A stretch of 64,000 bases of DNA, from NCBI GenBank assembly GCA_044347345.1, contig JBIKUX010000001.1, positions 17,719 through 81,718 of the forward strand, given 5' to 3'. Origin of the DNA: Bdellovibrionota bacterium (GTDB taxonomy: Bacteria; Bdellovibrionota_C; UBA2361; JBIKUX01). A program made the position numbers and the translations under genes. Positions 40,369 to 51,247 of this stretch are shown here, piece after piece. The notes under the pieces are model-generated. The model was not told the origin of the DNA. It saw nothing but the letters and a program-made list of their open reading frames with translations, and searched no databases. Numbering within the stretch: the stretch's first letter is position 1; each line of letters starts with the position of its first letter.

Positions 40369-40530
40369 TTAGCCCTGGCTCCGCCGATTTTGACTTTTAT
40401 GAAAATAAAATTTATCCGTGCTGGCTTATCGTACCTAATCCAGTTAAGAAACAACAACACGCAAGATGCTACAATAGACTTGAGAATAACTCACTAACCG
40501 CCTACGATCTAGTCTTTTTCCATTTTGATA

Positions 40531-42699
40531 ATGATACCAAACAATCTCTCTGACCAAGCTATCCAAAACACCCAAGAACCTGAAATTACCTATGATTCAG
40601 ATATACCAGAAGATGCTAAAAATTTGATTAAACAAGAAGAGCACACGCTAAAACAAACTCTCCAAACTCTTCTTTCGTTACTTGACCGACATCTTCACCG
40701 ACGCAACCTAGAAGAATCTAGAGCGCGAGAGCTTACAGCCTCACTAGTAACTGCGAGGCGAGACGAAGATAAACAGCTAATCGCATCCGATGAAGCTGTC
40801 TCACATGCTCTTAAAGAGAAAGCTCGGGATGATATTAAAACTACCAACGCTCTACTCAACAGACCATATTTTGCTCGAGTTATATTGGAAGAAGAGGAGG
40901 AAAACGGTACTACAAAGACTATTGAATTTAAACTAGGTATCCATTCAAATACCGATGCTCGTATTATTGATTGGCGCCGTGGTCCACTCGCACGTTTGTA
41001 TTATAATTACCGTGAAGGCGAGGAATACGGCGAATTTATTCAAGGCCGAGAGAGAACTGGAAAAATAAAATTAAGAAATCAACTTGATATACAAAACGGC
41101 GATTTAAAGGGGATTATTTGTCGCTATGGCCGATTAACAAAAACCGGCCATAGCTGGAAACAAGCGATCACTCAGAGAATATCAAGGCGATACGATCAAT
41201 TACCTGATATTCTATCTTTAATTTCACCAGAGCAATTTGATTCAATTACAACTGAAGCTAATACAGCAGTGCTTGTTCAAGGAATTGCTGGTTCAGGTAA
41301 AACGAGTGTAGCACTTCATCGCCTTTCATGGCTTCTTCATGAGGGAAACTCACCACTTCAACCAGCTGATTGCGCAATAGTGGTGGTAAGTAGAGCGTTA
41401 AAGGAATACATTAAAAATTCCCTTCATCACCTTCAAATCTCTGGTGTTCACACTTTTACTCTCATTGAGTGGTGTAATGAGTGCCTACCGTGTCGACCAC
41501 TGAGAAGTGACTCTCCATTGGTTTACGCGAGAGACAAGCTTCCAAGAACTTTAGCTAGATTAAAAGCTTCAGACGCTTTACTCGCCTCAATAGAATTAAT
41601 TTTTAAGACCAAAAATCAATCTATACTAACTAATGGATTTAGTAGCGACTCGTTAGATGCGTTTGAACAATACATAAATATCTGCAAGTTAGTTCTTGAA
41701 TGTCCAGGCGAACTTACTGCCAATGACTCTACTAAACTGATAGATGAAGAAAGCATAAATCATCTTAAAGAATATCTCTCTCATCAGCTTACTCAGGGAG
41801 ATATCGACAGATATGACTTAGCTCTCATGGTTAGAATACAACAGCTCACCGCTGGTAGCATTCGAATTCCTCCGCAAGATAGTGCCCTAGGCTCCTCTTC
41901 CGCTCATGTTTCAGAAAACAAGTCTCGATTCGGTAAATATGGTCACTTAATTGCAGATGAAGTGCAAGATTTGAGTGCAGTTGAACTTGCAGCACTCGCC
42001 GGAGCTGTACCATCAGTAAGAGATTTAACTCTTGTAGGAGATACAGCCCAAGCTATCACCACTTCTCATTCATTTCCTGGATGGACAAATCTTATGTCCC
42101 GATGGAATTTAACCGATGAAAGTTCTAGATTTATACTTCTAACAATCTCACATCGCTCAACAGCGCCAATCATGAGATTAGCTCAGTATGTTTCAACTGG
42201 TTCCATACATCTAGCGCAACAAATCAAAGGTAGAGAAGGACGTGTTCCTATTTTTTTCCAATCTCGTGAGGAATCTCGGGCTATACACGCAGCTATTGCG
42301 TGGCTTAAAAAAGCCCTGGAGCGTTATCCCACCGCTATTACCGCTGTTTTATGTCGTAACATCAGCGAAGCCAAACAAACCTTCTCTCTTTTAAGACCAA
42401 CGTTTGGCGATACAGTCAGATTAGGTAACGATGATGACTGTTCTCTGGAGGAGGGTCTTTTAGTCGCACCAGTTGGAGATGTAAAAGGCCTTGAGTTTAC
42501 CAATGTCCTTGTATGGAATCCAACTCAGTCCAGTTACTCTACAACAGATGAAGAGAGAAATCTGTTGTACGTTGCGCTCACTCGTGCAGAAGAAAATCTT
42601 GCATTAGTTTCGTGGCGTCGCCCCGCAAAACATCTTCCCCAGTTGGATAGCCCTTTTGTGCGTGGCATCAGTCTTGATGCAGATGAGGAGGAAGTATAA
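40531..42699 (+). CDS. HelD-like superfamily-1 ATPase/helicase
   Basis: RPYFARV, IIDWR...LARLYY, EQFDSI, QGIAGSGKTSVALHR, DEVQD, VGDTAQ, HRST, KGLEF, LYVALTRA. Confidence 0.8.
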   Translation: MIPNNLSDQAIQNTQEPEITYDSDIPEDAKNLIKQEEHTLKQTLQTLLSLLDRHLHRRNLEESRARELTASLVTARRDEDKQLIASDEAVSHALKEKARDDIKTTNALLNRPYFARVILEEEEENGTTKTIEFKLGIHSNTDARIIDWRRGPLARLYYNYREGEEYGEFIQGRERTGKIKLRNQLDIQNGDLKGIICRYGRLTKTGHSWKQAITQRISRRYDQLPDILSLISPEQFDSITTEANTAVLVQGIAGSGKTSVALHRLSWLLHEGNSPLQPADCAIVVVSRALKEYIKNSLHHLQISGVHTFTLIEWCNECLPCRPLRSDSPLVYARDKLPRTLARLKASDALLASIELIFKTKNQSILTNGFSSDSLDAFEQYINICKLVLECPGELTANDSTKLIDEESINHLKEYLSHQLTQGDIDRYDLALMVRIQQLTAGSIRIPPQDSALGSSSAHVSENKSRFGKYGHLIADEVQDLSAVELAALAGAVPSVRDLTLVGDTAQAITTSHSFPGWTNLMSRWNLTDESSRFILLTISHRSTAPIMRLAQYVSTGSIHLAQQIKGREGRVPIFFQSREESRAIHAAIAWLKKALERYPTAITAVLCRNISEAKQTFSLLRPTFGDTVRLGNDDDCSLEEGLLVAPVGDVKGLEFTNVLVWNPTQSSYSTTDEERNLLYVALTRAEENLALVSWRRPAKHLPQLDSPFVRGISLDADEEEV

Positions 42700-42751: not shown

Positions 42752-43072
42752 ATGTTTAAACATAAACGCAAACCAAAAAATCTTGATATTGATGTCTCTG
42801 TATTAAGTACACTTTTAAGTGTTCCAGAGCTTAATCAAAACTGTGATCAAGCTAATAGCCTCCAGTATAACAATCATGAGTCTCACAATCACAGCGAAAC
42901 AGCTAAACGGCAAAGTGTTAAATTTTTATCAGTAGAAGAACTAAAGATTAAATTTCCAAAACTCAATCTTCCTAAAGATACCGAAGGTGGTTGGATTACA
43001 GAAAGTGGTGATAGAATTTTTTTGGTAGTTGGAGGTATACACCACCTTACTACTCCGGTCTTAACCAATTAA
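42752..43072 (+). CDS. Small hypothetical protein
   Basis: 106-aa ATG ORF ending 26 bp before the phytochrome gene; no family recognised. Confidence 0.5.
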   Translation: MFKHKRKPKNLDIDVSVLSTLLSVPELNQNCDQANSLQYNNHESHNHSETAKRQSVKFLSVEELKIKFPKLNLPKDTEGGWITESGDRIFLVVGGIHHLTTPVLTN

Positions 43073-43098
43073 TAGCCAATTAAAATTAAGTTCCCTCG

Positions 43099-45966
43099 AT
43101 GAAAGAAGATAAAAACCTAGAGGGACTACTTAGCAGATGTGACCAAGAACCTATTCATATACCAGGCTCAATTCAACCTCACGGCATTCTATTAGGTATA
43201 AATAGTGCAGACTATCAAATATGCGTGGTAAGCGAAAATATCTCTATCTGGTTAAATCTCTCTCCAAAAAAGATCATCGGTTCATCGCTAGACACAATTT
43301 TTGAAACCTGTGTAAAAGATGATATTGATGCCCTAAAATCTACGTTATCAGAAAAGCCAGATACTCTTTTACCGCTAAAGATTCATTTTAAACCGTCAGT
43401 ATTAAAAATTTTATCGAATGATAAATCAGCTATTGCTGACTCAAATTCAATAAATATCGGATTTGTTCATCAAGTAGGATCTTTATTTTTGCTAGAGATT
43501 GAACAAGTAGCACAACCTTCGTTGAAAGAGAAATTAGACCCTCACATTGAGTTAAGAAGTTCAATTTCTCAAATGTATCAATCTAATTCTATATTAGAAG
43601 CTTGCGATATAGCAGCAAATGAAATTCGTCGTATTACGGGATATGACCGAGTAATGATCTATAGATTTGATGAGGATTGGAATGGCCAAGTAATTGCAGA
43701 GGCAAGAGAATCAACTCAAGATTCATTACTTCATCTCCACTATCCTGCGAGTGATATACCTACTCAAGCTCGTACACTCTACATTAAAAATAAACTGAGA
43801 ATCATAAGAAATAGAGACTACATACCCAGTAAATTACATTATCACCAAAATTTTAATGATCCCGTTGCTTTTCAAAGTAATCAATACTTATCAACAAGAG
43901 AATTAGATTTATCTCTAGCATCCCTAAGAAGTGCTTCTCCGATACACTTACAATACTTAAAGAATATGGGGGTAACTGCTACCTTAACCATGTCCTTAGT
44001 AGATGGAGACTCACTTTGGGGACTGATAGCTTGCCATCATTCAAGCCCGAAACATATTTCATACGAACAACGAATATTTTGCGAATCAATTTCTCTGCTG
44101 TTCTCTTGGCTACTAAACGCAAAGGCTCGTCAAACTGATGAAGAACAACGGTTATATTCTCGAGCTATTCTTAATACATTGAAAGATTCGGTAACTAAAG
44201 TCTGTATTTCAGCAAATACGGACTCTCTCTTTAGCGCACTAAATAATTTTGACTCAGTAAATAAAAAAGAACCAGATATACTAAGATTTGTCGATGCATC
44301 TGGGGCGATAATATCCTTACATGATAAACTATATTTTTACGGAAAGTGCCCATCTTTCAATGATTCTAAAAAACTCATTGGTTGGCTTACAACGCTAAAT
44401 CTCAATAAACCATTCGTTACACATTGCTTAAAAAATTATTATTCTGAAGCTCAATCTATTACCCATTGCGCTAGTGGTCTAATGGTTTTACCCCTCCTTC
44501 AAAATGCTCGCGATTTCATAGTTTGGCTGAGGCCCGAATTAATTGAAACTGTTAAATGGGCTGGAAAGAACAGCACTACGACAAACACAAACAATCTGAA
44601 GGAATTAGAATTATCTCCTCGCAGATCGTTTGCTACTTGGATAGAGCAAAAATTGGGAGAATCCGCACACTGGCTTTATTGGCAAACTGACCACGCTGAA
44701 CGCCTAGTGTTATTACTAACTAAAATTATAATCGATAATATGGCGCGCTTAGAAGATTTACGCGCTGTTAACAAAGCAAAAGATGAGTTTATTGCTGTTA
44801 TATCTCATGAACTGCGAACTCCAATCCATGCTATCCTTGGATGGATTGAACTTATTCGAGACAAAAAATTCGATAGCTTGGACTTACCCTTTATCCTTGA
44901 ATGTTTGAAACAGAGCGTATTGTCTCAAGCTAAAATTATAGATGACCTTCTCGATATAGGCAGAGTTTCGCGAGGATCCATGCATATCGAGCCCTTACGA
45001 ACTTCTTTAACAGAGGTCGTTAATCGGGCAATTAACTCATTTCAGTCAATAATCACTGATAGGCAAATTAAAATTATTGTATCTAGTAACAACAATCTTC
45101 CCTCTGTTTTTGTAGATCCTGAGAGAATACAACAGGTATTTGCGAATATATTGAATAATGCAATAAAATTTTCCCCTCAGGGTGGACAAATAAATATCTC
45201 ACTTCAGGGTAACAACAAGTCTATACTTTGCCTAATTAGAGATGAAGGATGTGGCATTGAATCTAATTTATTAGAATTTATATCAAGTGGTTCCAAATTA
45301 GAGAATCTAGCCTTTAATGAGTCTATCCCAAATGCTAAACAAAGCGGTATAGAGAAAAATAATTTAGGGAAAAAAGGTCTCGGGCTAGGATTATCAATAT
45401 CGAAGCACATAATTGAACTTCACAATGGTCAAATTAGTATCGCCAACAATACAGAATCTAAGGGAACAACAGTTAATATAGAAATTCCCATAAATCATCA
45501 AATAAATAACTTCTTGCCGTCAGATTATCAAAAGGAGTTTGATTCAAATAATATCCAAGTGTCGCAGAAAATTTGCGATGTAAATAATAATAAAAAACAT
45601 ATCCTTTTGTTGGAGAGGGATTCCGAATATGTACAATTTTTTTCTAATCATCTAAACGATAAAACAATCGAGATTACTCATACAAACCGCGGAGATACTG
45701 GTCTTGAGCTCGCATTATCGCGCTTTTACGACTTAATAATATCGGATATCACTTTACCATATATGAATGGAGTTGAATTTATTACTCGACTCAATACGCA
45801 CTATCATCTGCGTGGCCTTAAAATTCCGAGCAGTATCGCAGTATCATCCTCTTATCGCAAAGAAGATATAAGTCAAGCACTTGCCGCTGGATTTACAGTG
45901 CATCTTACAAAACCTATCACAGTTTCAGCTTTAATGGAGGCAGTAACCACGCTTCTTTTTGCGTAA
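43099..45966 (+). CDS. bphP: Bacteriophytochrome hybrid histidine kinase (PAS-GAF-PHY-HisKA-HATPase-REC)
   Basis: N-terminal bilin-attachment Cys in CDQEPIHIPGSIQPHG; DRVMIYRF, YPASDIP, PIHLQYLKNMGV, LWGLIACHH; PHY PRRSF; SHELRTP; NILNNAIKF, DEGCGI, GLGLGL; receiver IISD and TKP. Confidence 0.95.
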   Translation: MKEDKNLEGLLSRCDQEPIHIPGSIQPHGILLGINSADYQICVVSENISIWLNLSPKKIIGSSLDTIFETCVKDDIDALKSTLSEKPDTLLPLKIHFKPSVLKILSNDKSAIADSNSINIGFVHQVGSLFLLEIEQVAQPSLKEKLDPHIELRSSISQMYQSNSILEACDIAANEIRRITGYDRVMIYRFDEDWNGQVIAEARESTQDSLLHLHYPASDIPTQARTLYIKNKLRIIRNRDYIPSKLHYHQNFNDPVAFQSNQYLSTRELDLSLASLRSASPIHLQYLKNMGVTATLTMSLVDGDSLWGLIACHHSSPKHISYEQRIFCESISLLFSWLLNAKARQTDEEQRLYSRAILNTLKDSVTKVCISANTDSLFSALNNFDSVNKKEPDILRFVDASGAIISLHDKLYFYGKCPSFNDSKKLIGWLTTLNLNKPFVTHCLKNYYSEAQSITHCASGLMVLPLLQNARDFIVWLRPELIETVKWAGKNSTTTNTNNLKELELSPRRSFATWIEQKLGESAHWLYWQTDHAERLVLLLTKIIIDNMARLEDLRAVNKAKDEFIAVISHELRTPIHAILGWIELIRDKKFDSLDLPFILECLKQSVLSQAKIIDDLLDIGRVSRGSMHIEPLRTSLTEVVNRAINSFQSIITDRQIKIIVSSNNNLPSVFVDPERIQQVFANILNNAIKFSPQGGQINISLQGNNKSILCLIRDEGCGIESNLLEFISSGSKLENLAFNESIPNAKQSGIEKNNLGKKGLGLGLSISKHIIELHNGQISIANNTESKGTTVNIEIPINHQINNFLPSDYQKEFDSNNIQVSQKICDVNNNKKHILLLERDSEYVQFFSNHLNDKTIEITHTNRGDTGLELALSRFYDLIISDITLPYMNGVEFITRLNTHYHLRGLKIPSSIAVSSSYRKEDISQALAAGFTVHLTKPITVSALMEAVTTLLFA

Positions 45967-45993
45967 TTTAATCAAAAAACTTCATCTTAGATT

Positions 45994-46021
45994 TAAGAAA
46001 TATTCTTAAAAAACCGACTTT
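45994..46021 (+). promoter_or_regulatory. Possible sigma-28 (FliA)-like promoter upstream of the cheA-like gene
   Basis: TAAG-N16-ACCGACTT resembles TAAA-N15-GCCGATAA; imperfect match. Confidence 0.25.
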
Positions 46022-46051
46022 ACACCGGAAGATAAAACGATCGTGCATATA

Positions 46052-48121
46052 ATGATGGATGAGGAAGATTTTCGAGAATTTCTCATTGAAAGCTACGAAT
46101 CTGTAGAGTTTATAAGTAAAAAACTCTCCGAACTTGAAAAAACAAATTACGTTTGTGACGTTATTGATGAAATTTATCGTCGTGTTCATAAGATTCATGG
46201 TATTAGTGGCTTTCTGGAATTTAAAACTCTCGAAAATATTTCAAAACAAGCTCAATTTTTACTGGTAGAATTAAGAAAGGATCCAAGTAAGACCTCAAAA
46301 AACGAAAAACAAGTTCTGGTTACTTTTAACGATACCGTAAAATTAATCCTCACAAACATTCAAACACAAAAAAATGAGGGACGATTAAACATAGAGCAAC
46401 TTAATAAGGATTTTACCAGCACTATTGCTGAATTAAGAGCGAAAAATAGTGCTAGTTCTCAAGAAGCACAAAAACAAGATAACGTAAGTGATCCGGAAGA
46501 TTGGGATAAATTATCCCATAATATCTCCAGTAACACCGACAAGAATCAAATATTAATAGATGTCACAATTCTAGATAATTTGCTCGACCTCGTTAACGAA
46601 CGCTTAGTGACACTACAAATACAATCGGACAATAGACACGAAAAGTATCCGGCAAACTGCCCAGATTTAAAAAACGACTTTGAATTTTTGACCACAATAA
46701 TAAAACTTATAAAAAACGTAAGATTACAGTCACTAAAAAGTATGCGAGAGGAGCTTTTTCCTTTTGTTAACGACATGTTAGCTAAGTACAATAGAAAAGT
46801 ACGAATTATAGTTCAAGATGACGATATCGAAATTGATAAACTAGTCGTAACGACGATTAAAGAGGCAGTATATAAAATCATTTTTTACTTTTTAAAATTA
46901 CCACAACCTAAGATAAACACCCAAACTAACGACACTCAGGGATTGAGCCTCGACACTAAAGAAAATAAGCAATCCGACATTATCGTTAAATTATCCTACG
47001 ATATGGGCAGAATTAGCCTCGAAATACTTGAAGGTTCTGCTAAAGAAGAATCATGTTTAAATCCAGTTCAAATAATTACCACTAATGAAGTGAGAACTAC
47101 TCTAGAAACTCTCAACTTAAAAATAAAAAGCCTAGGTGGAAAGCTTGATCAGTTTGGAGTGTCCGGAAAATTAACGTCAGTCCGTGTAACACTACCTAGT
47201 GCTATAATGGCCGTACCGATGCTCATGGTGGAAAGTCATGGAGAACGCTTTCTGCTTCCAAGAGGAAATATTGTAAAATTGTTAAAGATCGATAATCTGC
47301 AAATAAGAGAGCAGATCGAAGAAATAGATGGAATCTATTTTTATAAAAACTATCATACACCACTTCCAGTTATACCCTTATCACAAGCTCTTAATATCGA
47401 AACAAACCCAAACTTAAACCTCAAAGATAATATAAATCTGATAACTGTACGGGTACACTCTGAGGAATTTGGAATTATAGTCGATAATATTTATCAAATT
47501 GAAAGCTCCCTCATAAAACCACTAAATAAGTTACTTGAAAATCATCAATTATTTTCAGCTGTGTCTATTTTATCTGATGGAAGTATCGCTTTTGTATTAG
47601 ATTGTTCGAAAATTGGTGATAAATTTTCTTTAATTCGAGACAACCGCATCCCTTCAGTTATTGAATCTTTTGAAACTGTGACTACTAAATCATCTAATCA
47701 CCAAGATCGCTTAATTGTGGTAAAAATCGATCAAACCTTTCAGGTTGCAATCCCAATTAATAAAGTAAATAAACTTGAAAAAATCTCCTCTGATAATTTA
47801 ATCAGACAGAACCAAGAGCTTTTTATCAAACTTAAAAGTCAAGAAGTGATCCCGCTTATTATTTACGGAGCTCATGAACATACAAAACAGAATCTTTTTG
47901 AGCTAAATGATTTTATATCTACTGTCATAATAACAGATGGCGAGAAAACTTTAGCGCTCCTAATAGAGAGCATCATTGGGATAACAGAGCAATCAGGCGA
48001 TGATATCAATACCAATCTTAGCCTTTTATTTAATGACAAAAGTGAGGGTTTCATAACTAGTCAAATATCAAAAATTGTAAATGTTGATGACCTAAAAATA
48101 CTTGAATCAATGTATCACTAA
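46052..48121 (+). CDS. cheA: CheA-like protein (Hpt-dimerisation-degenerate HATPase-CheW-CheW), predicted kinase-inactive
   Basis: Hpt FREFLIES...IYRRVHKIHGISGFL; dimerisation IDVTILDNLLDLV; IEIDK; SLGGKL...VTLP; two CheW-like domains; N, G1 and G2 boxes not recognisable. Confidence 0.8.
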   Translation: MMDEEDFREFLIESYESVEFISKKLSELEKTNYVCDVIDEIYRRVHKIHGISGFLEFKTLENISKQAQFLLVELRKDPSKTSKNEKQVLVTFNDTVKLILTNIQTQKNEGRLNIEQLNKDFTSTIAELRAKNSASSQEAQKQDNVSDPEDWDKLSHNISSNTDKNQILIDVTILDNLLDLVNERLVTLQIQSDNRHEKYPANCPDLKNDFEFLTTIIKLIKNVRLQSLKSMREELFPFVNDMLAKYNRKVRIIVQDDDIEIDKLVVTTIKEAVYKIIFYFLKLPQPKINTQTNDTQGLSLDTKENKQSDIIVKLSYDMGRISLEILEGSAKEESCLNPVQIITTNEVRTTLETLNLKIKSLGGKLDQFGVSGKLTSVRVTLPSAIMAVPMLMVESHGERFLLPRGNIVKLLKIDNLQIREQIEEIDGIYFYKNYHTPLPVIPLSQALNIETNPNLNLKDNINLITVRVHSEEFGIIVDNIYQIESSLIKPLNKLLENHQLFSAVSILSDGSIAFVLDCSKIGDKFSLIRDNRIPSVIESFETVTTKSSNHQDRLIVVKIDQTFQVAIPINKVNKLEKISSDNLIRQNQELFIKLKSQEVIPLIIYGAHEHTKQNLFELNDFISTVIITDGEKTLALLIESIIGITEQSGDDINTNLSLLFNDKSEGFITSQISKIVNVDDLKILESMYH

Positions 48122-48137
48122 ATACACCATACTATTT

Positions 48138-48623
48138 ATGAATAACTATTCTGAATTAACTCCAGAAATTAACTATGAATACTTGGCTAATTTCCGATTA
48201 GGTAACTTACTTTTTGGTATTAATGTAGCATCTGCTTTGGAAGTCTTAGAATACCAAGAGCCTAAACCATTTTTTTACCGGTCTAAAGAGGAAAAAGAAT
48301 TTATAATTGGAATCATAAAATATCGGAGTATGATTATTCCTGTTGTTAGCCTTCATGCAACACTAGGTTTGCCAGAAATTGATAATTTGAATAAGGCATT
48401 TTTCTATGTAGTGAGCACTCCTGAGTGTAAATTTAGTTTACTAGTAAATGAAGTTGGAGATGTCATAAAAGTGGATAGAAATCATTTTGAAGATGTACCA
48501 GCAACTATTAGTAATCGCATCAAAGCTATTCTTAAAGGTGTTTATAGAATTAAAAACTCTCTTATATTAGTAACAAGCCCAAAAGATATTTTGTCTGTTT
48601 TTAAACAACATCTGCCGAATTAA
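48138..48623 (+). CDS. cheW: Chemotaxis coupling protein CheW
   Basis: FRLGNLLFGINV...EVL, GIIKYRSMIIPVVSL, LLVNEVGDVI, FEDVPAT, KGVYR. Confidence 0.85.
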   Translation: MNNYSELTPEINYEYLANFRLGNLLFGINVASALEVLEYQEPKPFFYRSKEEKEFIIGIIKYRSMIIPVVSLHATLGLPEIDNLNKAFFYVVSTPECKFSLLVNEVGDVIKVDRNHFEDVPATISNRIKAILKGVYRIKNSLILVTSPKDILSVFKQHLPN

Positions 48624-48669
48624 AAATTTATAACAACTAGACTATCAAAGATTTTTATCGTGGTTCCAG

Positions 48670-49533
48670 ATGAGAAACCCAAAACTTTTTCTTGGTATTC
48701 AACCTATTTGCAGCATAGTTTCTGATATACTCAGCTATATACCTCATAAAACTGTAACTGACGTAACCGATGCAGATTATATTGTTTTTCCTCAACACAT
48801 CCCCTCAGGAGCGGTATCAGAAGACATGGCGCTCACACTTGTGTCCTATAAATACTATGCTGAAGATTTTAATAAAACCCTAATCATTTTTGTAATGTCT
48901 GATTTTACTGATCCGTTTAAAGGCTTTGATAATTCTATTATCTACAGAACATCTCTTTATAGGTCTGAATGCCTTAAGCATGAGCGCATATTACCATATC
49001 TTTGGATAAACAATTGCTTTTATAAAATTAAACCAATAATAAATAATCGTCCTCGAATAAATTTCTGTGGAGCAATTACCTATCCCCAACGAATATTTGA
49101 ATTGGAGGCTATTTTAACATCTTGCGATAAGTGGCTGGATTGTGACTTTACCATCAGAGATAAACCCTGGGGAGAAGGAGTAAGTAATGCTCATCAGGAA
49201 TTTTTTAATGGATTGAGTAATGCTCAATTTATCTGTTGTCCACGCGGTGTAGGAAACTTTTCAATTCGATTTTATGAGACACTTTGTGCCGGCAGAATTC
49301 CAGTTTTTGTTAACACAGATATGATTCTACCCTTTGAAGGCGAAATAAATTGGAATGACGTAGCTGTGATTGCACCAAACATAGATGAACTACCTAACTG
49401 CTTAATTAATTTTATCAAGCGAAAAAATCTGGTTGAATCTCAAATATTGTGTCGAGATATTTATGATAAGTACCTCTCACCCGCTAAGTTTGGTGAATAC
49501 TTACATCGTTGTATGTCTTCGGGAAAATTTTAA
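48670..49533 (+). CDS. Exostosin-like (GT47) glycosyltransferase-domain protein
   Basis: INFCG and FICCPRGVGNFSIRFYETLCAGRIPVF...LPFEGEINW match the exostosin core pattern. Confidence 0.78.
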   Translation: MRNPKLFLGIQPICSIVSDILSYIPHKTVTDVTDADYIVFPQHIPSGAVSEDMALTLVSYKYYAEDFNKTLIIFVMSDFTDPFKGFDNSIIYRTSLYRSECLKHERILPYLWINNCFYKIKPIINNRPRINFCGAITYPQRIFELEAILTSCDKWLDCDFTIRDKPWGEGVSNAHQEFFNGLSNAQFICCPRGVGNFSIRFYETLCAGRIPVFVNTDMILPFEGEINWNDVAVIAPNIDELPNCLINFIKRKNLVESQILCRDIYDKYLSPAKFGEYLHRCMSSGKF

Positions 49534-49651
49534 AGCTGTTATGTAAATCTTTGACTAGTCTTTTATTTGCACCAAAGGATCAGATTTTTTATCCTCCCCA
49601 TCATTTGAAGAATTGTCGTAGATTTTTACAACTTAAATATAAGCTGTAAAT

Positions 49652-51247
49652 TTAAAGATTTTCGAGCGAAGTTTCCCGTAATTGTTTAATTAGTTGTGCA
49701 TACCGATTCAGATCTGCTGTAGCAGTCTTTGTCTCTTTTGCTTGCTCAGAAGTATTAATTACCACTTGAGAGGATTCTTTGACCTTATGATTAATCTCCT
49801 GTAGAGACATTTTTACTGTGTTAAATGAATCGACTATTTTTCCTGAGACAACTCTTTGATCCCCAAGTAAGTTATCAATCAAAGCACAAAAACTATTTAC
49901 TTTATCTAGGCCACTACTTATTTGCCGTAAATAGACACTTACTTTGTCGATTTTTTCTTGAACTGCTTGCCTAGTTTTCGAAATTTCATTGACTTCTTGA
50001 GCGGCACCACAAACGATATTTTTTACCTCATTAACTACTACACTAAAGCCTCGACCCAAATCTCCAGCTCGCGCTGCCTCGATACTACCATTAATAGCTA
50101 ATAAATTCGTTTGTTCAATAATATTACCTAGGACTTTTAATGGATTGTCCATTCCATTCTGAGCGCTAGACACAGTGTCAACCAGCGTAAAGCCCTCACC
50201 AGCTACTTTTATAACCTCCAAAATCACCTGCACAGCTTGAGCCATCTTCCGAGTGATATCGCGAATGATTGACTCTGAAAACTCATTCGCTTTTTCACCC
50301 TCAATTATATCTTCCTCTAATTTATCAGGTCTCGGCAATACAGATTTAAGTTGATGTACCGATTGTTCTGCATTAGAAATTAAAGCGCCAGTTAAGACAT
50401 CAACATCTTCTAAAGACTTGCTAAATTGAGTAGCAACTTCAACCAGTTCTTGACTGATTTTTTCTTGATGAGCTTTATAGGAGGTTATATCAGTTAAAAT
50501 CTTAATTATCGAAACTACTCTTCCTTCTTGGTCGCAAACAGCAGAATACAGAGCGCTCACCCATACTTCACGGCCACCTTTTCCTAACCCTAAATATTCT
50601 ACTGCTATATCCCCCTCACCTCTGTTTAACTTTTCCCATAAACGCTTGTAATCAGCAGATTGAGCATACTTAAGCTCACAAAACAAACTATCGTGACGTC
50701 CTCTTACCTCATCAACTGTATAACCAAACATTGAGAGAAACTTGCCATTCGCAGCTCGTACTGTTCCGTCAGGCTCAAACTCTACAATTGGTTGTACTTG
50801 ATTTAATGCTTCTAATTGAGACTTAACACGAGATTCATTAACGACACGCTCAGTAGCATCGTGAGCAAATTCTACAATCTTTGACACTACACCCGTAGCA
50901 TCTCGTACAGGAATATAAATAGATGAAATCCAAACGAGACTTCCGTTTCGTCGGAATCTTTTAATAATTCCCGAGCAGGAATAACCCAAAGCAAGTCTCT
51001 GCCAAAAGTCAGTATACTCTGAGCTCTTCGCATAAGACGATTCATGAAATTGCGCGTGATGCGTATCGATTAATTCTTCCCGACGGTATCCCATTAATTT
51101 TTGAAAAGCTGGACTCAGATCAATAATACGACCGGTAGGGGTAAATTCTATGTAAACTACTTCCTCAGATCGAAGAAGATTGGCAGCTAGGTCGCCCTTT
51201 GGTAACTCGGATGTACCTAACTGCACTATCTGAAGACCATCACTCAT
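49652..51247 (-). CDS. Soluble PAS-PAS methyl-accepting chemotaxis protein (BdlA-like architecture)
   Basis: Two PAS/PAC repeats (IEFTPTG...MGY...FWQRL; VEFEPDG...[11 protein letters not shown]...LWEKL); MCP tip [27 protein letters not shown]; no TM segment. Confidence 0.88.

Follow-up and report, generated by a model that had tools for sequence, protein, structure and literature searches.

The stretch of DNA analysed here (64,000 nucleotides, hereafter the window; C45:17719-81718 of a 2.53 Mb Bdellovibrionota genome assembly of 68 contigs, 95.8% complete) carries a locus in which bphP, the gene of a hybrid bacteriophytochrome, is followed on the same strand by a cheA-like gene and by cheW, with a chemoreceptor gene converging on them. 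The CheA-like protein is a pseudokinase and not a wreck: it has lost its ATP-binding motifs and keeps its phosphotransfer histidine. We give about an even chance to the reading that it is a CheA3-like scaffold under selection, which needs a phosphodonor in trans. As a whole, the locus consists of a phytochrome with a well-conserved light-sensing half and a most divergent kinase/receiver half, together with the remains of a reduced flagellar-type chemosensory operon. A preliminary description of this DNA had proposed that the phytochrome replaces the missing kinase activity of the CheA, thus wiring light to chemotaxis. This interpretation is partly supported: the sequence evidence supports a sole, dead CheA that, should it signal by phosphorylation, depends on a donor from outside, and does not support the phytochrome as that donor. 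The genes of the locus, with positions in the window, are:

43099-45966, plus strand: bphP, hybrid bacteriophytochrome of 955 amino acids (aa), PAS2-GAF-PHY plus HisKA/HATPase_c plus a C-terminal receiver (Pfam)
45967-46042: spacer between bphP and the cheA-like gene, 76 bp to the GTG start and 88 bp to an ATG at 46055
46043-48121, plus strand: cheA-like gene, pseudokinase of 692 aa, P1-P3-degenerate P4-P5-second CheW domain (alignments and structural model)
48102-48623, plus strand: cheW (Pfam CheW, 62 bits); a TTG at 48102 overlaps the cheA-like stop, and the first ATG is at 48138
48670-49533, plus strand: GT47/exostosin-like glycosyltransferase (Pfam, 45.5 bits, cut-off 33.4)
49652-51247, minus strand, convergent: soluble PAS-PAS methyl-accepting chemotaxis protein (MCP) (Pfam; PAS region 50474-51175, signalling domain 49730-50155)

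Each coding frame is free of stops, against 11-90 stops in the other frames of bphP, the cheA-like gene, GT47 and the MCP gene; by these counts, the open reading frames (ORFs) and domains of the locus are not due to chance. Alignment and Pfam bear out most of the arrangement first described, namely a CheA without ATP-binding boxes but with its Hpt histidine, then cheW and a GT47 gene, and a convergent cytoplasmic PAS-PAS MCP, in which no hydrophobic (transmembrane) segment was found (Kyte-Doolittle maximum 1.48). The P1 and dead P4 of the CheA-like protein had also been recognised, but its second C-terminal CheW-like domain had been overlooked, and the start assigned to the phytochrome, 42752, belongs to a separate ORF of 106 aa (orf106).

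Over its full length, the CheA-like protein aligns with true CheAs that are 706-726 aa long and have the layout Hpt-P3-P4-CheW-CheW. With Pfam, it gave a CheW match of 65 bits, a sub-threshold Hpt match of 17.6 bits (cut-off 24.6), and no HATPase_c match. Its domains are placed as follows:

46055-46468, plus strand: P1 (Hpt) domain, residues 5-142, with the His49 codon at 46187-46189
46748-47197, plus strand: degenerate P4 (HATPase_c remnant), residues 236-385 (alignment)
47198-48118, plus strand: P5 (CheW-like) and second CheW-like domain (Pfam CheW at both places)

As judged from the alignments, the kinase has been lost specifically: none of the N, G1, F and G2 boxes survives, whereas the invariant His49 and Gly53 of P1 are kept. 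In P4, the N box is replaced and accompanied by a 4-residue deletion, the G1 motif DDGxG has become YDMGR, and about 23 residues comprising the F/G2 lid are missing. The reading frame of the P4 remnant nonetheless holds no stop, whereas 16 and 19 occur in the two alternative forward frames. Over the whole gene, the 692 codons include no stop; base composition predicts about 53, and the other frames hold 32-82. The terminal branch of the whole protein is 3.45 substitutions per site long, against a median of 0.73. A frame that is still open after more than three substitutions per site, where about 53 stops are predicted, indicates that the gene has been under selection.

The divergence is extreme and uneven along the protein, as the following values show for each domain:

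P1: identity to relatives 0.29, against 0.39 among the relatives (ratio 0.74); terminal branch 1.68, median 0.51
P3: identity 0.24, against 0.49 (ratio 0.49)
P4: identity 0.21, against 0.52 (ratio 0.40)
P3 and P4 together: terminal branch 4.27, median 0.33
P5: identity 0.28, against 0.44 (ratio 0.63); terminal branch 2.11, median 0.48
Second CheW domain: identity 0.18, against 0.25 (ratio 0.70)

Hidden Markov models (HMMs) built from the relatives only, with the query left out, gave 89 bits for P1, 102 for P5, 62 for the second CheW domain and 37 for P3-P4. The AlphaFold2 model of the protein has a mean predicted local distance difference test (pLDDT) value of 79. In this model, P1 forms a five-helix bundle (pLDDT 91-98), the P3 region is predicted as two helices (174-227, pLDDT 58-87), the P4 remnant is folded except for a disordered lid region (332-344), and the two CheW-type barrels are confident (pLDDT mostly 85-94). 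The best structural match of the model was the CheA P3-P4-P5 structure 1b3q_A (E = 1e-24). Compared with isolated P4 structures, the P4 remnant reached template modelling (TM) scores of 0.66-0.73 at 16-19% identity, and P5 matched CheA P5 domains in the PDB with E of about 1e-15.

No counterpart of this gene was found in the 95.8% complete genome. By Pfam, the three CheW-domain matches, the single MCPsignal match and the CheA-like gene of this locus are all the copies that the genome holds, and neither tblastn with four true CheAs nor a six-frame scan with family HMMs found another CheA or CheW. The only receiver domain within the window is the phytochrome's own, and the window holds no cheY, cheR or cheB, as previously noted. 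Elsewhere, the genome gave 10 matches to flagellin domains and 37 to receivers. Among the latter, an orphan regulator of 140 aa (C37:73410-73832, plus strand) has CheY as its best NCBIfam model (110 bits, below the cut-off of 189); its neighbours are mlaA and an OsmC-like gene. In this flagellin-bearing genome without an active CheA, no other regulator is obviously directed to the motor.

In the reading that we favour, the pseudokinase would be kept by selection as a non-catalytic array scaffold with a phosphotransfer histidine, like CheA3 of Cereibacter sphaeroides. Its P5 and second CheW domain, together with CheW and the MCP, whose hairpin tip sequence is canonical, would be the receptor-docking parts that selection has kept. 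The CheA-like protein cannot charge itself; a phosphate signal would therefore require a phospho-aspartate to charge His49 in trans. The donor could be the receiver of a hybrid kinase, or phosphate could return from phosphorylated CheY. Phosphate would then pass between His49 and the orphan CheY-like regulator, which would presumably act on the flagellar motor. The neighbouring phytochrome is a candidate donor by its position only. Array formation, charging in trans, and an output through CheY to the motor are inferred.

Several observations weigh against this reading. In P1, three columns that are at least 90% conserved among 61 sequences have changed (K52H, H68K, and E71Q), and this domain may be drifting as well. 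In P3, four residues are deleted from a conserved helix (the GELVLxRNQ stretch) and Pfam H-kinase_dim finds no match, so that dimerisation is uncertain. The whole genome contains only an 18-bit, sub-threshold match to CheR and no CheB, and hence no adaptation is expected. A CheA4-like partner (P3-P4-P5) was not found by Pfam, tblastn or family HMMs in the 95.8% of the genome that is assembled, 4% being unassembled, and the genome offers no other CheA as a donor for His49. Furthermore, close relatives are lacking. The genomes compared include none from its own family or genus. Searching 5.8 billion proteins with a word index gave 59 CheA-like relatives, the best non-self at 22% identity, and an exhaustive phmmer search of 1.84 billion representatives gave 9538, none above 28%. 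Within 40 genomes of the same order, the best CheA-like matches were 23-26% identical, and many were to CheAs that carry several Hpt domains.

Two further points come from metatranscriptomes and metagenomes. Contigs from two metatranscriptome libraries of one study lie on the cheA-like gene, cheW, GT47 and the MCP gene at 99% identity or more, and bridge 47946-48170 and 48583-48875. This hints at transcription of the four genes, but these contigs may include DNA carry-over; bphP (43094-46063) had no such cover, which by the method's own rule is uninformative. In one lake DNA run, variant contigs at a depth below 5 showed 8 nonsynonymous and 2 synonymous codon changes in the receiver tail, and 6 and 3, respectively, in P5; in GT47, the same run had 0 nonsynonymous and 2 synonymous codons. 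On these very few data, the codon pattern is near the neutral expectation. The differences are clustered, with 13 in 142 bp (45830-45971) and 10 in 165 bp (47396-47560), the contigs being identical elsewhere. Such clusters of mostly nonsynonymous changes suggest a divergent co-occurring strain or recombined patches.

Much of this could also be expected if the chemosensory genes, and perhaps the output half of the phytochrome, were a decaying remnant drifting under relaxed selection, their adjacency being accidental. We consider this explanation improbable. The erosion is indeed widespread, comprising the dead P4, the P3 deletion and the loss of the P1 triad, as well as an arginine at position 840 (Arg840) and a lost F box in the phytochrome. 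There is neither CheR nor CheB nor a second receptor, the genes of the locus form the longest terminal branches of their families, the variant codons of bphP and the cheA-like gene follow a near-neutral pattern (14 nonsynonymous, 5 synonymous), and the arrangement is seen only once. Base composition points the same way: the guanine-cytosine (GC) content falls to 0.33 across cheA-like, cheW and GT47, and the deficit lies at codon positions 1 and 2, as for drifting proteins in an AT-biased genome, with GC at third positions (GC3) of 0.27-0.28 in bphP, the cheA-like gene, GT47 and the MCP gene (genome mean 0.30). A deficit placed in this way indicates drift of amino-acid composition and not recent transfer; recent horizontal transfer was rejected as the cause of the low GC, the GC3 being typical of the genome.

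Against decay, the 692 codons have remained without a stop over more than three substitutions per site, and the divergence is domain-specific and not uniform. His49 is retained, the MCP tip and the photosensory module are well conserved, and all domains are predicted to be folded. The locus is also word for word identical in at least seven lake runs from 2020 to 2024, and its genes are present in RNA libraries. In all, the locus is present, at least in part, in 23 lake or freshwater runs; in seven of them, 0.99-1.00 of its sampled words occur, and the source sample may be among these. Lake-water metagenomes of 2020 and 2024 have the locus word for word, and freshwater runs of 2017 have it in part. 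From this recurrence, the organism is a recurrent member of the freshwater plankton.

If His49 of the pseudokinase is charged in trans, the nearest hybrid kinase is the phytochrome. In the strictest form of this idea, the phytochrome would autophosphorylate at His570 under the control of light, and the phosphate would pass to its Asp883, then to His49 of the dead CheA in a cytoplasmic PAS-MCP array and on to CheY, so that red light and the receptor signal are integrated. We hold this relay to be quite unlikely, although the locus offers much that would suit it. The two genes lie on the same strand with a gap of 76-88 bp, no terminator-like site was predicted on the plus strand of this gap, and bphP and the cheA-like gene may be co-transcribed. 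A hybrid kinase needs an Hpt, and the adjoining gene offers one with His49 and Gly53 intact; no other CheA is available to charge P1. In P1, the residues lost (K52, H68, and E71) are the CheA-specific helpers of phosphorylation by P4, while generic Hpt features remain, which would fit a switch to a receiver as the donor.

The phytochrome itself is recognised by Pfam through PAS_2 (59 bits), GAF (52 bits) and PHY (126 bits). BphP is its best NCBIfam model (292 bits, below the equivalog cut-off of 1040), and among its named relatives the best is a protein of Oligoflexus, with 35% identity. Its conservation was assessed in an alignment of 60 hybrid phytochromes, counting losses at columns at least 90% conserved in the other 59. 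The photosensory motifs Cys14, D219-I220-P221, His283 and P507-R508-x-S510-F511, all at invariant or near-invariant columns of the 60 homologues, are kept; we take them to be the N-terminal biliverdin-binding Cys, the DIP motif, the bilin-pocket His and the PRxSF tongue motif. The invariant columns of the kinase and receiver are also kept (H570, N683/N687, D715/G717/G719, G760/G762/G764, D883, and K938), so that the His, N, G1 and G2 residues, Asp883 and Lys938 that a relay would use are all present. The losses are distributed as follows:

Photosensory module: 5% of conserved columns lost, 12th among the 60
DHp: 21% lost, 2nd among the 60
CA domain: 26% lost (7/27), 1st (worst) among the 60
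Receiver: 36% lost, 1st (worst) among the 60
45616-45618, plus strand: Arg840 codon, receiver; Asp in 59/60 hybrid phytochromes, Arg in this one only
45745-45747, plus strand: Asp883 codon, receiver phospho-acceptor, invariant in 60/60

The hybrid bacteriophytochrome had been described as complete. This holds for its invariant columns, but not for the F box of the transmitter, where F729S, F732S and Q734L have replaced residues that are at least 90% conserved in the alignment, nor for the receiver active site, where E839, D883, S916 and K938 are present and R840 replaces the second acidic residue. Position 840 corresponds to Asp13 of CheY, the second Mg-binding acidic residue. In this genome, Asp occupies the equivalent position in 31 of the 34 receivers with an alignable N-terminus. 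CheY D13K is reported to be poorly phosphorylated, and the equivalent change in the relay intermediate EpsW to abolish signalling (PMC4671073). A receiver that keeps its Asp is thus not necessarily relay-competent. From its sequence, the phytochrome receiver looks poorly phosphorylatable, and its link to His49 as a donor is therefore unproven. A complex prediction of the receiver (826-955) with P1 (1-135), each with its own alignment and with no control pairs folded, gave a score of 0.03 against a mark of 0.32, and is no evidence on binding in either direction.

The rest of the genome speaks against the strict relay too, in that other Hpt domains are available for its hybrid kinases, about nine besides the phytochrome. 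A bona fide stand-alone Hpt of 121 aa (C5:245-610, minus strand; Pfam E = 3.9e-12) scored 27.6 bits on the CheA-P1 HMM and is likely a general relay partner for these hybrid kinases, and a hybrid kinase on C7 holds an internal Hpt. The His motif of the stand-alone Hpt resembles that of CheA P1, and its neighbours are the end of a convergent gene at the contig edge and unrelated genes. A hidden CheA beside it at the contig edge was considered and rejected: the contig end cuts through no minus-strand frame, and the frame that follows is the end of the convergent gene. A second route from kinases to motility is conceivable at C7:3349-8102 and C7:18457-19816, where two large hybrid kinases (one of them with an internal Hpt) and a regulator are encoded some 10 kb away from a pair of flagellin genes.

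The preliminary description had named the lack of linkage in relatives as telling against its proposal. We scanned the best 80 of 591 confirmed phytochrome loci (600 stretches matched) in 185,579 species genomes, with at most 10 kb of flank. With family HMMs, P1, P5 or CheW was found near the phytochrome in 0/80 of these loci, which come from other phyla, several of them being cut by contig ends. A first scan by single-sequence phmmer had given only PAS and HATPase cross-hits, and the rescan with family HMMs was equally negative. PHY domains occur in 5/91 genomes of the order, the window's own included, and in 8/124 of the phylum; P1, P5 or CheW was near PHY in 0/8 loci from the seven other genomes of the phylum, four of these loci being cut by contig ends. 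In the four other phytochrome-bearing genomes of the order, the CheA hit lies on a different contig. The arrangement was thus seen once only, set beside 88 other phytochrome loci, and the synteny of bphP, cheA-like, cheW and MCP genes recurs in 0/88. With no genome of the same family or genus to compare, this test of linkage is weak. Together, R840, the Hpt domains found elsewhere and the missing linkage count against the phytochrome receiver as the donor. The proposed wiring of light to chemotaxis is possible, and adjacency is what suggests it.

A broader version, in which the array is powered by light without a kinase of its own, we judge decidedly improbable. Here the phytochrome would phosphorylate His49 either through its receiver or by docking on the CheW domains, and P1 would charge the orphan CheY and steer the flagella. 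Were it true, the array would give a red/far-red photokinetic or phototactic response to a non-phototrophic, Bdellovibrio-like lake bacterium, and would represent a phosphorelay grafted onto chemotaxis scaffolding.

Very improbable, finally, is a coupling without any His-Asp-His relay, by analogy with described phytochromes. The kinase core of the phytochrome would dock on CheW or on the CheW-like domains of the CheA-like protein, as for Ppr, or it would act as a light-dependent phosphatase on the CheY-like regulator, the Arg840 receiver being a locked, phosphorylation-independent module. DrBphP is reported to act solely as a light-dependent phosphatase (PMC12189002), D13K to activate CheY independently of phosphorylation (PMC4671073), and three CheW-type domains are encoded beside the phytochrome. 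However, linkage is not conserved, and a Ppr mutation is reported to be without obvious effect on phototaxis (PMC5812497). By whatever route, any functional coupling of phytochrome and array seems to us somewhat unlikely.

The source of the chromophore deserves a separate remark. PF01126 heme oxygenase was not found in the 95.8% complete genome, the search being limited to this one heme-degrading family. For a Cys-bearing phytochrome of the biliverdin type, candidate sources are the missing 4% of the genome, another heme-degrading family, or uptake.

As to the MCP, Pfam recognises two PAS domains and neither GAF nor PHY. The nearest homologues are multi-PAS MCPs, with identities of about 29-36% where most of the query aligns and of up to 42% in partial alignments. 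NCBIfam gave only generic PAS similarity for the two domains, so that LOV, heme or flavin adenine dinucleotide (FAD) assignments were discarded, no cofactor being nameable; the redox or oxygen sensing earlier suggested for them is unsupported.

For GT47, weak partial matches were obtained in 5/90 other genomes of the order. It was rejected as a conserved che neighbour, the matches being few and weak and none of them on a contig known to hold a CheA hit; the CheA search sampled 40/90 genomes of the order and none of the five with GT47 matches. Its role in the system is doubtful. Upstream and downstream, the order of genes continues with:

40525-42699, plus strand: UvrD-like helicase (ORF listing and Pfam)
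42752-43072, plus strand: orf106, 106 aa, no family (ORF listing, Pfam, and NCBIfam)
Beyond the MCP gene: amtB and efp (ORF listing and Pfam)

The match of the helicase to its family starts at residue 235, the first 230 residues or so having no Pfam match. orf106 has a GC content of 0.34, and an RNA-library contig covers 42549-42768. It matched no Pfam or NCBIfam family, and its protein-atlas hits are at chance level (83/256 shared features). It may be a gene fragment or a non-gene, and is probably not part of the system.

The preferred reading, a pseudokinase scaffold charged from outside, raises the question of what purpose a chemoreceptor array unable to make phosphate serves in a flagellated bacterium. 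Were a hybrid kinase to charge His49, the locus would provide the first two-component phosphorelay into chemotaxis scaffolding, and with the phytochrome as donor a link between red light and swimming in a non-phototroph. If His49 is never charged, the locus would be a well-preserved pseudokinase array with a phosphate-independent function.

The TorS, ArcB and RcsC/RcsD phosphorelays resemble the histidine kinase-receiver half of the phytochrome, which matches the NCBIfam TorS, ArcB, LuxQ and RcsC models with E of 1e-36 to 1e-49, all below cut-off. Hybrid kinases of the TorS/ArcB/RcsC type need an Hpt; the receiver here differs from theirs in lacking the second acidic residue. We know of no relay that uses a CheA P1 as its Hpt. 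No report of a phytochrome feeding a CheA P1 was found in the literature searched, mostly titles and abstracts.

In the cyanobacterial Tax/Pix systems, a bilin photoreceptor provides the input to a pathway of the MCP-CheW-CheA type. There, the photosensor is fused to the MCP, the CheA is active and the output is through type IV pili, whereas here a separate hybrid kinase stands beside a dead CheA.

By its layout of Hpt, dimerisation, kinase and two CheW domains, the CheA-like protein resembles the F5-class CheAs of Azospirillum, Caulobacter and Rhodospirillum centenum, a class assigned by layout and not by phylogeny. Nearly every CheA with two CheW domains belongs to class F5, and a HATPase_c P4 is present in every CheA surveyed by Berry, Andrianova, and Zhulin (PMC10542144). 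In contrast to these, the kinase domain here is dead and the genome lacks CheR and CheB.

The closest likeness in function would be with CheA3/CheA4 of Cereibacter (Rhodobacter) sphaeroides. CheA3 is reported to have a degenerate HATPase without ATP- and Mg-binding residues, an intact P1 and a CheW domain, and to be phosphorylated by CheA4 (PMC10542144; PMC6829392). Both systems have a dead HATPase that retains its fold between a P1 histidine and a CheW domain, and both have soluble receptors. The two proteins are likened by architecture; the one described here has one Hpt, no P2 and two C-terminal CheW domains. A dead CheA as a phosphotransfer or scaffold subunit is known from CheA3, always with a live CheA4 (P3-P4-P5), the donor encoded in the same operon, whereas here the genome has no other CheW-domain kinase.

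Ppr of Rhodocista centenaria, a fusion of photoactive yellow protein (PYP), bacteriophytochrome and histidine kinase, likewise links a phytochrome-type kinase to chemotaxis proteins, and binds CheW. Ppr differs in that it is no hybrid kinase and has an active CheA as partner; binding of the phytochrome to CheW is here only a candidate. Since CheA3/CheA4, the binding of Ppr to CheW and the phosphatase-only DrBphP have been described, the earlier statement that no described system has this wiring was too strong. The wiring has precedents, in a phytochrome kinase with CheW as a binding partner and in a dead CheA that receives its phosphate from another CheA.

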